The position numbers and the translations under genes are program-made. A model generated the notes under the pieces. It saw nothing but the letters and a program-made list of their open reading frames with translations, did not search any database and was not told the origin of the DNA. From a virus (Duplodnaviria; Caudoviricetes), in IMG/VR virus record IMGVR_UViG_3300005758_000042, positions 1-32,329 of that record: a DNA stretch of 32,329 bases. One strand, 5' to 3'. Shown here one piece after another: positions 3,448 through 32,329 of the stretch (position 1 is the stretch's first letter; the number at the start of each line of letters is the position of its first letter).

Positions 3448-3586
3448 ACACATCATCGTAGGGGCTACAGGAGTGGGTTACGCTATCGTGGGCACACTCC
3501 AGTGGCTCAAAGGGGACTTGCCTAACGGTATGATCTGGGTAGGTTACGCTTTTGCTCAGGTGGGGCTATGGATGAATCTAAAATGA
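3440..3586 (+). CDS. 48-aa small membrane protein (not in ORF track)
   Basis: MIEHIIVGATGVGYAIVGTLQWLKGDLPNGMIWVGYAFAQVGLWMNLK*; two hydrophobic segments; coupled to both neighbours. Confidence 0.7.
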   Translation: MIEHIIVGATGVGYAIVGTLQWLKGDLPNGMIWVGYAFAQVGLWMNLK

Positions 3587-3771
3587 TGGACATTGATACA
3601 CTTGTGGGTAGACTGATGGATCTTGAGAGCAAGTATTATGAGTTACAATCCAAGTATCAAACCCTGATTCACCAATACGAACAATTGAAAACCGATCATG
3701 AGAATTGCCCTCGACATCGAAACGAACTTGGCACACGATACGATCCATTTGTGCGTAACCAAAAACCTTGA
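3583..3771 (+). CDS. Small coiled-coil hypothetical protein
   Basis: ATGA-coupled start; heptad pattern LMDLESKYYELQSKYQTLIHQYEQLK. Confidence 0.6.
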   Translation: MMDIDTLVGRLMDLESKYYELQSKYQTLIHQYEQLKTDHENCPRHRNELGTRYDPFVRNQKP

Positions 3772-29760: not shown

Positions 29761-31017
29761 TTAATAACCAGCAATCGGGTCAAGAATTTCAAATTCATCT
29801 TCTTCATAATCAGCGTTGTAGTTAGCAACTGCAAGCTGATCCACGTAACTCAAAGCATCCACTAAGTCATCATGCACACCATTGGTAGGGAACATGATGA
29901 GTTGATCCCTAAACTCAGTCCAATCTTCATTCTCATTGAATGAAATCCGTCCATGCTCAAGGCGTCCTTGAAGTGACCAAATAACTCGATCAGTTTTCTT
30001 TTTGTTTCCGTGAGTGAGATCATGAATATGAGCATAGATATTATTCTTCCTCATCAAGTCATTCAGATACGGTAAAACAGCATTCTTCAATGCTCCTCGC
30101 TCAATCCCAATTGCACTCGGTTGGAAATCCCTGATGGTTTTAAGAATATTGACAGCTGTTTGTCTAATATCCCATCGACCATGCTCAATACTATGAACCC
30201 ACCAATCACCGTTATCCAAAAGCTTAACAATAGCAATAGCAGTTTCATCTAAACGCTTCTTGGAAGCTCCAGCATTCTTAGCCACATCCTCAAATCCAGC
30301 CAAGTCCACCGCAACGTAATAAGCCCCAAACTGAGGTTCCTTAGCTTTCTTAAACCACTCTTCCTTAAAGACATCAGCACCAGCGGTATCAAAAGAACTT
30401 AGGTATTCCTGCTTGAAAGCAAATGAACTAAGCGTCTTTTTAGCAGCCTCAATTTCCTTCGGATCAATAGTCTCATTGTCCTTAGTGGTAAAATGCCAGC
30501 TTTTCCATTCTTCATCATCTTCTTGACCCAGTTGGAAAACATCATAAAACCAGTTACGGCCTGACGGAGTGGAGATAAACAACGCTCTACCCTTCTTGTC
30601 AGACAAAGATGCTCGAATAATCTTTTCCCAAACATCCTGCTTAACGAATGCACACTCGTCCAAGACTACATACGTCAAAGACATACCACGAAGACTGTCA
30701 GGGTTATCAGCCCCACGCACGAGAATCTTCCGTCCATTCACCAACGTGATCTCAAGGTTGTTCACATGACTGGACTTAATTACCGGCCTACCTAGCTCAT
30801 GCAACAAGTCCCAGATAATAGATCTTGCTTGCCCCAAAGTAGGAGCAATGTACATCACCGCTGATCCGTCAGGACAATTCAGAGCCTCAATCAATAGCGT
30901 TACCGCTGATAGACGAGATTTACCGCAACGTCTGCCTGCGGCAACCACCTTGAATCGTTTCTTAGACCCAAATACCTGCTGTTGCCACTTAAGGAGTTGG
31001 AAGTTAAGTTCAGCCAT
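29761..31017 (-). CDS. terL: Terminase large subunit
   Basis: Walker A AGRRCGKS; YIAPT; Walker B VVLDE; ISTP; nuclease VDLA...HDDLVDALSY. Confidence 0.96.
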   Translation of the reverse strand: MAELNFQLLKWQQQVFGSKKRFKVVAAGRRCGKSRLSAVTLLIEALNCPDGSAVMYIAPTLGQARSIIWDLLHELGRPVIKSSHVNNLEITLVNGRKILVRGADNPDSLRGMSLTYVVLDECAFVKQDVWEKIIRASLSDKKGRALFISTPSGRNWFYDVFQLGQEDDEEWKSWHFTTKDNETIDPKEIEAAKKTLSSFAFKQEYLSSFDTAGADVFKEEWFKKAKEPQFGAYYVAVDLAGFEDVAKNAGASKKRLDETAIAIVKLLDNGDWWVHSIEHGRWDIRQTAVNILKTIRDFQPSAIGIERGALKNAVLPYLNDLMRKNNIYAHIHDLTHGNKKKTDRVIWSLQGRLEHGRISFNENEDWTEFRDQLIMFPTNGVHDDLVDALSYVDQLAVANYNADYEEDEFEILDPIAGY

Positions 31018-31414
31018 CTAAATCCTTAATTTCCACATCAACCACATCATCCTGTTCCAAAACATCCTCAGCAAGGCCCACAGAAGGGCTTTGGAGCCCT
31101 GAAATGTTAATGGATATACTTGGGGTACTACCACCTTGTTTAGAGGCCTCAAAAGCCGATACAGGCACAATACGGTCGACAATCAACTTCCATGCTGCAG
31201 CTTGGTTCTTATGATCATCATTCAATGCTGCATCATAAATAGCCTCAAGCACCTTAGCACTCTTAGGTGAGTTGAGCATCCGTACCTTGTACTCATTGAT
31301 GATAGCCGTATCACCTTTTGGACGCCCAATAACCCCAGTATTCTTTTTCTTTACGGCGACAATCTCACCCTTCTTGGGACGCCCTCGACCACGCTTCTTA
31401 ACTTCTGGTTCCAT
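31010..31414 (-). CDS. Probable terminase small subunit (start moved to ATG 31414)
   Basis: Directly upstream of terL; AAAGGA SD; AT-hook-like KKRGRGRPKK and GRPKG; AAWKLIVDRIVP. Confidence 0.75.
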   Translation of the reverse strand: MEPEVKKRGRGRPKKGEIVAVKKKNTGVIGRPKGDTAIINEYKVRMLNSPKSAKVLEAIYDAALNDDHKNQAAAWKLIVDRIVPVSAFEASKQGGSTPSISINISGLQSPSVGLAEDVLEQDDVVDVEIKDLDG

Positions 31415-31500
31415 GTTTATCCTTTGGGACATGGTTAGACAATTCTTAATCTTTCGCATAACCCTTATAGGGGGTTAGACAAAAAATCTCAGAGCCCTAC

Positions 31501-31610
31501 TATACTTTAATGTACTCTAATGTTATATATTTATATATTTATATTAATGTATAACACTAATGTACTTTAGTGCTTTAATGTACATTAGTGTACTTCTATG
31601 TACATTAGAG
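31501..31610. repeat. AT-rich array of ~10-bp TGTAC(A/T)(T/C)TA(A/G) units
   Basis: tatactttaa 31501, tgtactctaa 31511, tgtactttag 31561, tgtacattag 31579, tgtacttcta 31589, tgtacattag 31599. Confidence 0.8.
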
Positions 31611-31641: not shown

Positions 31642-31860
31642 GCATTTATGCACAAATAACATAAATATTTATTGTCTACAACTTATGCGGCTTCACTTTA
31701 AAGTCCCCTTTAAGGGTGCACAGATGGCACTTTAGAGTCTCTATTTGTCTTATGTTAAGTTATTTGTCTATGTCTAACACAATATCGTTATAAATCATAA
31801 CCTTATTTGATTCTCATCTGTCCCCAATTAAATTAACTATTTAGTTACTTTTTAGTTCCA

Positions 31861-31920
31861 GGTTTACTTTTTTGTGAACGCTAGAGGCTTAGTTTTCTTT
31901 TTTGTGAACGCTAGAGGCTA
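31861..31920 (+). repeat. 30-bp tandem duplication
   Basis: 27/30 identity; identical 23-bp core CTTTTTTGTGAACGCTAGAGGCT at 31867 and 31897. Confidence 0.9.
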
Positions 31921-32045
31921 CCGCAAAAGTAAACACTCACGTACACCCCTCCCCCCCTATGTCTCTGGAGCCACCAGCGAAGTGAGTACTTACTTCAGAG
32001 TTACTGACCAGTCAGTCATTAGTGCACACGTTAGTGAGTGCTTAC

Positions 32046-32094
32046 ACACTACAGGTAGTGTCTTAGGTTAGTGAGGACACACTATAGGTAGCGT
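32046..32094. promoter_or_regulatory. Pair of NrdR-box-like sites
   Basis: ACACTACAGGTAGTGT (32046-32061) and ACACTATAGGTAGCGT (32079-32094), 33 bp apart; consensus acaCwAtATaTwGtgt matched except at the centre. Confidence 0.5.
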
Positions 32095-32127
32095 GTGAGG
32101 GACGGTGTAGCACCCTCTAAAGGGTAC

Positions 32128-32157
32128 TGTGGATAACCTGTGAACTAATGTGGATAA
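32128..32157 (+). promoter_or_regulatory. DnaA boxes
   Basis: Perfect TGTGGATAA at 32128 and 32149; degenerate TGTGAACTA at 32139. Confidence 0.75.
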
Positions 32158-32168
32158 CTTTAAAGACC

Positions 32169-32223
32169 GGCAAATATTGCAGTCAAAGCGGCAAAAATTG
32201 CCGTTAGTGTGGCAAATATTGCC
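32169..32223. promoter_or_regulatory. Three phased palindromes, candidate upstream activator sequences
   Basis: GGCAAATATTGCA 32169, GGCAAAAATTGCC 32190, GGCAAATATTGCC 32211; exact 21-bp period. Confidence 0.7.
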
Positions 32224-32264
32224 GCTGGTGTTCAGAATTTGAATACTATAGGTTTACAAAATAG

Positions 32265-32281
32265 CTGGCACGGGAGTTGCA
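32265..32281 (+). promoter_or_regulatory. Sigma-54 (RpoN) -24/-12 promoter
   Basis: CTGGCACGGGAGTTGCA matches YTGGCACG-N4-TTGCW; GG and GC are 10 nt apart; AAGGA SD follows at the window end. Confidence 0.8.
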
Positions 32282-32329
32282 ATATAGATTGTGCCTGCAA
32301 CGGGCAATAACTTGCAAAGGATCAGCAAT

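Follow-up and report, generated by a model that had tools for sequence, protein, structure and literature searches.

Sites resembling host operators in a swappable cassette at the predicted terminal repeat of an uncultured freshwater phage family

Host-factor sites at phage ends and related systems

The closest known likeness to the locus described here is in bacteriophage T5, where host DnaA boxes lie in non-coding terminal DNA with helical-turn spacing and a function that is unproven. In the accessible part of the T5 study (Davison, bioRxiv 10.1101/866236), the boxes are located in Repeat Region 3, at the injection-stop signal of the left terminal repeat, and form pairs 3 bp apart that lie within inverted repeats of that long terminal repeat, together with A1/A2; T5 is set apart by its 10-kb repeat, by injection in two steps and by having a single named class of site in a fixed arrangement. 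The supplement to that work describes further palindromes, which may bear on novelty. In the phage family studied here, by contrast, the predicted repeat is ~170 bp, at least 10 classes of site occur in 55 combinations, and A1/A2 were not seen among the ORFs scanned. The DnaA boxes of the sequence at hand also differ from those of the T5 stop signal, being 21 bp apart and outside a predicted 194-bp repeat.

In datA and in the Fur titration assay, a regulator is titrated away from the chromosome by additional copies of its operator; both differ from the present locus in being chromosomal or engineered, with one class each, rather than a swappable phage cassette. Tandem matches to a 12-bp SlmA site on DNA that becomes multicopy also recall the SlmA-site plasmid, on which, in the available text, tandem SlmA sites block cell division with SlmA at ~4x its native level (PMC3573117; see also PMC3020112). 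That plasmid was constructed in the laboratory, in E. coli cells whose SlmA was raised, whereas the present locus is a natural phage element, with a likely Burkholderiales host, in which the sites are matches of sequence.

Convergent arms, a short direct terminal repeat (DTR) in an ORF-free region, a G+C-rich 5' end and a class II ribonucleotide reductase (RNR) form a likeness to the Zobellviridae and cobaviruses, the latter having DTRs of 159-173 bp with G+C-rich 5' ends according to the accessible sections of PMC6775973, in which an operator array is not mentioned. The ICBM1 and RIO-1 DTRs, too, have a C-rich run close to their left ends. However, no member of the Zobellviridae was among the best terminase, capsid or primase matches listed. 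The combination of a six-base FlrC motif with a sigma-54 promoter resembles the FlrC/FleR and FlbD enhancers, as far as these are described in the available text of bioRxiv 10.1101/2021.08.29.457346 and PMC3930126, but here it faces predicted phage early genes, and NtrC-type sites are found instead in other relatives. A search of the open literature (titles and beginnings of abstracts, with subscription journals outside its scope) found no account of a phage terminal repeat with a swappable operator cassette of several classes. Host-factor sites at phage ends are already known from T5, though unexplained, and the multi-class swappable cassette would be a new variation.

The phage, the array and the predicted terminal repeat

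The stretch of DNA analysed, hereafter the window, comprises the 32,329 nt of Caudoviricetes record IMGVR_UViG_3300005758_000042, and ORF and family searches gave a two-armed genome. The + strand arm encodes a primase-helicase, a family A polymerase, an exonuclease, a ThyA-type thymidylate synthase and an RNR. The - strand arm carries terminase, portal, capsid, tail and lysis genes, with the terminase large subunit at 29761-31017 (-; phrog_2, E 8e-52) and the likely small subunit, placed by position and having no family match, at 31010-31459 (-). A nucleotide search against cultured phages produced chance matches only, and the best cultured-phage protein matches listed were distant (terminase ~28%, capsid 33%, primase 49%). 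Uncultured relatives of this uncultured freshwater phage are abundant, at ~2800 stored stretches as estimated from the terminase, and come from freshwater, wastewater, sediment and estuary runs. The records of near-complete relatives are 35-38 kb long, and therefore ~6 kb of early genes would be absent past the right edge of the window. The genome was read as linear and podovirus-like, with the array stretch as its predicted leading end. The host is likely to be a Burkholderiales bacterium, the order to which the host search was confined; host matches of NrdR, SdhR and enhancer/sigma-54 sites point to Burkholderiales, and 401 genomes of this order held two distant matches, and no close one, to the terminase.

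Several features outside the array were also recorded. A 67-aa ORF at 3568-3771 (+) has a weak ZapB-like coiled-coil match (E 0.003, below the cut-off) that is probably generic. Upstream of the small terminase gene, a sigma-70-like -35 word at 31637-31615 (-), which the promoter scan did not list, faces the late genes and recurs, by eye, in many relatives. An AT-rich stretch at 31497-31610, also upstream of that gene and of similar composition in relatives, contains short direct and inverted repeats and is a possible origin or packaging signal. A 26-kb phage-like contig within a Burkholderiales genome (L452, G064:C117) is distantly related, with 28-53% identity in three window genes; its bases 1-600 begin at a C-run and contain DnaA boxes, sigma-54 promoters and SlmA-type sites, two of each.

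The initial annotation placed an ordered array of host-regulator-type sites at 31925-32329, at the presumed early end of the genome. Every element was found where it had been described, the spacings of the multi-copy classes (52, 33 and 21 bp) were confirmed, and none of the six site classes recurs elsewhere in the window. Two 12-bp palindromes at 31982-31993 and 32034-32045, 52 bp apart, match the SlmA-binding site within its allowed bases, and both fit the base preferences measured in PMC3020112, as given in its accessible text. Between them lies a 14-bp palindrome (32003-32016) that is a candidate operator for a TetR-family regulator. Two NrdR boxes follow at 32046-32061 and 32079-32094, 33 bp apart, and enclose a decayed third SlmA-type site (32067-32078) that is intact between the NrdR boxes of two relatives (L333 and L090). 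Further inward are two perfect DnaA boxes (32128-32136 and 32149-32157, both -, 21 bp apart), three phased 13-bp palindromes at 32169-32223 (starts 32169, 32190 and 32211, 21 bp apart), which are a likely enhancer, and a sigma-54 (-24/-12) promoter at 32266-32281 (+) that faces the early genes. By their matches to NrdR, SlmA, DnaA and sigma-54, the sites do appear to be of host-regulator type, and the classes previously unnamed now have candidate binders, namely SlmA, a Burkholderiales TetR-family protein and a flagellar-type sigma-54 activator.

The only ORFs in the array stretch are a 65-aa GTG frame with no PHROG match, two further frames (30 and 33 aa) and an open-ended frame of 27 aa (-), and no Rfam match for a structured RNA reached its gathering score. 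A single contig of an independent assembly (run X11) covers 31700-32322, shows 26 differences and 17 gaps, and extends further into an ATG. Because this contig spans the stretch whole, the array is not an assembly artefact, and because it continues into the ATG, the window edge is not the genome end. The loose ends of X10 and X11 both run into the ATG, one relative (L357) likewise supports the start position, and the first early ORF is predicted to begin just beyond the window edge.

Two conserved landmarks flank the outer part of the array. The outer half of landmark 1 (31862-31919, +) is present twice, as a 28-bp direct repeat, and the terminase is predicted to cut after 31917, where the contigs of two relatives end; the conserved repeat start that follows (31918-31957, +) ends in a C-rich run. 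In relatives, landmark 1 lies ~750-1600 bp upstream of the terminase start and also ends in a C-rich run. Landmark 2 (32092-32120, +) would hold the right physical end, predicted after 32111, and four contigs end there. It was found 64-246 bp beyond landmark 1 in 70/70 distinct arrays, with scores of 13-46 against a best control of 2.3, using a profile trained on 43 of the 70. When 98 distinct truncated contig ends were examined, a landmark was nearby in 47; of the 32 with landmark 2, four ended exactly at a single base within it, and of the 15 with landmark 1 only, two ended exactly on the corresponding base, with the caveat that assemblers break at conserved repeats too. We infer that the landmarks are terminase cut sites bounding a 194-bp direct terminal repeat at 31918-32111 (+), which would occupy both genome ends; the predicted length across the family is 110-295 bp, with a median of 169. 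The far end of one record (G405) begins within the C-run and not at the predicted base.

Near-identical phages change to unrelated sequence at 32114-32116, and the three segments bounded by the landmarks reassort among relatives. The conserved landmarks and the contig ends of relatives support the presumed early genome end as a prediction. The single array proposed at the outset is present, but it consists of two modules divided at the predicted repeat boundary: the two SlmA matches, the TetR-type palindrome and the NrdR pair are inside, while the two DnaA boxes, the triple enhancer and then the sigma-54 promoter are inward of it. The duplication of the outer half of landmark 1, shared by the window with L006, L018, L030, L034 and L308, may have been left behind by recombination or mis-cutting at the terminus.

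Reassortment of site classes among relatives

The slot was compared in 360 sequences (359 loci and the window), of which 229 had both landmarks and 129 were kept after exclusion of duplicates and of loci with <215 inner bases. In the DTR and the next 300 bases, counts against shuffled means were 56 against 0.1 for exact SlmA sites, 178 against 0.7 for DnaA, 32 against 0 for NrdR, 62 against 0 for sigma-54 and 8 against 0 for the enhancer. Enrichment is partly circular for six patterns (Fur, HexR, tight NrdR, TetR-type, SdhR and enhancer) whose design drew on loci of the family. Four of these patterns were then tried on host genomes. The DnaA, sigma-54, LexA, CIRCE, parS and NtrC patterns were consensus motifs. 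Within the repeat, SlmA-type sites were present in 60 of the 129 loci (exact in 44), Fur-type in 39, DnaA in 35, NrdR in 17, the TetR-type palindrome in 16 and CIRCE-type in 7. The next 300 bases held DnaA boxes in 59 loci, sigma-54 promoters in 52, a further 12-bp palindrome in 37, NtrC-type sites in 36, SdhR in 34, HexR-type in 16, LexA-type in 14, parS-type in 12 and the flagellar-type enhancer in 4, the shuffled means across classes being 0-2.2. The relatives' sites labelled Fur-, CIRCE/HrcA-, parS/ParB-, LexA-, NtrC- and HexR-type are enriched over controls and are candidate sites for those regulators.

Altogether, 55 class combinations were found among the 129 loci, 11 of which lacked any recognised class, and the contents of the slot are interchangeable between relatives. 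On the terminase side, 400 bases gave 0 matches for SlmA, NrdR, DnaA, SdhR, LexA, parS, CIRCE and sigma-54, and only the HexR (9), Fur (4) and NtrC (4) patterns matched. Patterns for FNR, CRP, IHF, dif and matS were not clearly enriched in the slot (IHF 4 against a mean of 1.5, the terminase side having 9), a relaxed NrdR pattern carried little information (32 against 16.8 shuffled), and no host factor was matched to the common 12-bp palindrome. The SdhR sites of relatives agree with the accessible text of PMC4494728, and 3/3 such sites in host genome G001 lie before icd, sdhR/mdh and aceA. A DnaA-flanked 14-mer in relatives was considered as an oriC mimic, a reading that was ruled out, the 14-mer being the SdhR site; the DnaA-SdhR-DnaA block, with near-constant flanks, is common to otherwise different leaders (L017, L052, L057 and others). 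The repeats of L346, L307, L057, L147, L344, L083 and L152 carry tandem short motifs outside the tested classes, some of them like parS half-sites, and further host binders are likely in these repeats.

Exchange is also seen among near-identical phages. A Fur-type site replaces the NrdR pair in run X3, a CIRCE-type site is present at 31970 in X1, the TetR palindrome is missing as a unit in X11 and one enhancer copy is damaged in X10; two variants in X1 and X3 remain within the SlmA and NrdR patterns. The expectation that motifs are kept over spacers received mixed support: for X11, the differences listed affect 1/129 box against 11/186 spacer positions (p 0.03, with a worst case of p 0.6 should the 4 remaining differences all fall in boxes), but local alignments to six relatives gave no significant difference between box and spacer (p 0.26 and 0.33). 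That the same classes return in one slot although the surrounding sequences cannot be aligned is a stronger argument for selection than these substitution tests.

It could be that the sites serve a phage-encoded regulator or are neutral filler. The ~6 kb early region absent from the window, and the lack of a family for most small early ORFs, speak for a phage regulator. However, no regulator family was found among 32 small ORFs, and no TetR-family gene in 5/5 near-complete relatives, in agreement with the initial annotation, which had recognised no cognate phage regulator. Moreover, at least 10 distinct classes match host operators where shuffles give almost none, and we regard this explanation as highly improbable. 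The sites might instead form a scaffold of host factors that serves replication, concatemer formation or packaging at the terminal repeat, and in fact DnaA is the commonest class, in both DTR and inner segment taken together, and sites flank the predicted terminase cut sites. Such a scaffold is very unlikely, given that the phage has its own primase-helicase and polymerase, that many loci have no DnaA boxes and that the two landmarks, rather than the cassette, are the universal part.

Host counterparts of the sites and proposed function

SlmA scored over the cut-off in 87/121 Burkholderiales genomes (a tally that includes the unpublished G028), and in the one Burkholderiales protein aligned the recognition helix is that of the solved SlmA. 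Exact SlmA sites were near the reversed-control level in most of the 121 genomes, reaching 5-8 against 0-2 only in G042, G051, G105 and G116, and an extended form was found in 6/121 with a similar control count. These four genomes are small (1.9-2.4 Mb) and are candidates for SlmA site mapping in Burkholderiales. NrdR pairs 32-33 bp apart occur in 8/70 arrays, with 0 on the terminase side and 0-1 in shuffles, and host NrdR pairs at 31-32 bp are present in G105 and G051. Across 201 genomes, phage-type NrdR boxes stood before ATP-cone RNR genes in 3/3 cases, one of them (in G073) being the same 16-mer as box 1. No promoter-like site was found over the phage boxes (32046-32094), and the phage's own RNR gene is ~20 kb away. 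The 14-bp palindrome had seven host matches, three at the start of a TetR gene, two before an AraC gene and two with no promoter context, and is likely to be the operator of a host TetR-family regulator.

The enhancer palindromes stand 97, 76 and 55 bp before the sigma-54 promoter, at the same distances in the window, L023, L030 and L038. Pairs of enhancer and sigma-54 promoter were detected in 22/301 Burkholderiales genomes (G028 included) against 0 in the reversed control, and among 21 host pairs inspected, 8 precede Pfam-confirmed flagellin, FlgB or FlgH genes, 2 a methyltransferase gene and 1 a DUF7417 gene, with 10 lacking an assignment or scan. The enhancer arms hold the six-base FlrC motif named in the available text of bioRxiv 10.1101/2021.08.29.457346, and FlbD ftr sites are described in that of PMC3930126; the activator would accordingly be sought among FlrC/FleR/FlbD-like, flagellar-type proteins. 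In relatives, NtrC-type sites lie 116 or 145/146 bp from the promoter in 23/30 measured pairs. Of the 119 long loci, 27 combine an enhancer with a promoter and 59 lack both; a promoter without an enhancer is present in 22, and an enhancer without a promoter in 11. The unit of enhancer and promoter looks functional, so early transcription in such members would need a host activator. A scan of the whole collection for the tandem 13-bp palindrome gave 27 matches, mostly unrelated or coding, two of which lie, by eye, before flagellin-like genes of Alphaproteobacteria. Two host pairs (L264:1647-1835 and L251:1635-1817) precede small ORFs, one of them DUF7417, and are possibly prophage leaders of like design.

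One interpretation of the array, raised when it was first described, is that it senses the state of the host to gate early transcription; spelled out, all sites would act jointly and respond to dNTP, iron, heat, DNA damage, motility and nitrogen. The conserved enhancer-promoter geometry, and the 27/119 long loci with both elements, are consistent with this for the enhancer-promoter part. The repeat-borne repressor sites, however, are 170-280 bp upstream of the only visible promoter, sigma-70 promoters in the repeats show no excess (17 against 13-25 shuffled), the cassette reassorts independently of the promoter segment, and SlmA and ParB are not typical transcription sensors. The sensor reading is therefore limited to the enhancer and promoter, since the repeat has no excess of sigma-70 promoters on which repressors could act, and as an account of all the sites it is quite unlikely.

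The reading that we prefer, at a little under even confidence, is that of a host-activated early promoter combined with an interchangeable DNA decoy that would titrate repressors and misdirect cell-cycle proteins. In the first module, a host flagellar-type activator would start early transcription through the enhancer and sigma-54 promoter; in the second, the swappable operator cassette would act as the decoy. With the left end presumably entering first, binding by host proteins would precede the appearance of any phage protein, and upon genome amplification the phage sites would come to outnumber the few operators of the host. Titration of NrdR, and of Fur, HrcA, LexA, SdhR and HexR in relatives, would raise nucleotide, iron, chaperone and carbon supply. 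Soaking up of DnaA and ParB would slow host replication and segregation, and SlmA bound to dispersed phage DNA would block assembly of the FtsZ ring.

The decoy reading builds on four observations: the sites are present, are confined to the slot, are reshuffled from one relative to another and match operators of hosts. The many site mixes at the same spot in relatives suggest that the phage would manipulate its host by DNA alone. Extra Fur, HrcA, LexA and DnaA sites are known to titrate their regulators. SlmA, DnaA and ParB-type sites differ from the usual operators of promoters. No promoter is visible over the repressor and cell-cycle sites, and these reassort independently of the promoter segment. 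On the other side, no class is universal, NrdR being found in 17/129 loci, and there would be less need to titrate NrdR because RNR and ThyA-type genes are present in the phage genome itself. Note, too, that a pure decoy needs no terminal position, yet the equally non-coding terminase side is almost free of sites.

This confinement to the terminus, together with interchangeable contents, would also be expected of an entry anchor or end cap, in which any tightly binding host protein, placed on the first few hundred bases, would hold, ratchet or shield the leading end for as long as the remainder has yet to be drawn in by host RNA polymerase. Repeats with no recognised class are still built of short tandem motifs, the first SlmA site in relatives is mostly 41-65 bp from the predicted end, no phage RNA polymerase was found among 30 ORFs scanned, and anchoring through DnaA boxes is proposed for T5 in the accessible text of Davison (bioRxiv 10.1101/866236). 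Nevertheless, the classes include regulators of narrow regulons (SdhR, a local TetR) while FNR, CRP, matS and dif sites are lacking, and the stereotyped order of classes and their partition between repeat and inner segment exceed what a generic anchor needs. RecBCD can, in addition, evict bound proteins in vitro. An entry anchor is rather unlikely; it was ranked second after the decoy because the terminal position is clearly important and any protein that binds tightly might suffice. Decoy and anchor could coexist.

Extending the decoy reading to the whole of this abundant freshwater family, we propose, tentatively and at somewhat below an even chance, that the terminal repeat is a modular, protein-free takeover device. 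It would combine recombining operator decoys, covering division, replication, segregation, nucleotide, iron, chaperone, SOS and carbon functions, with a swappable enhancer that links early transcription to the motility or nitrogen state of the host. If true, phages would reprogramme their hosts by non-coding DNA alone, including an SlmA-mediated division block with no phage inhibitor, and the decoy cassette would be an equivalent, acting in cis, of auxiliary metabolic genes and sponge proteins. The proteins that the sites match are conserved in laboratory bacteria, and 200-400 bp is enough to hold the sites, so the question left by the host sites in the T5 terminal repeat becomes directly testable, and the 129 natural variants separate the predictions of a decoy from those of an entry anchor. 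The mix of operators may also offer a route by which the hosts of uncultured phages can be inferred.
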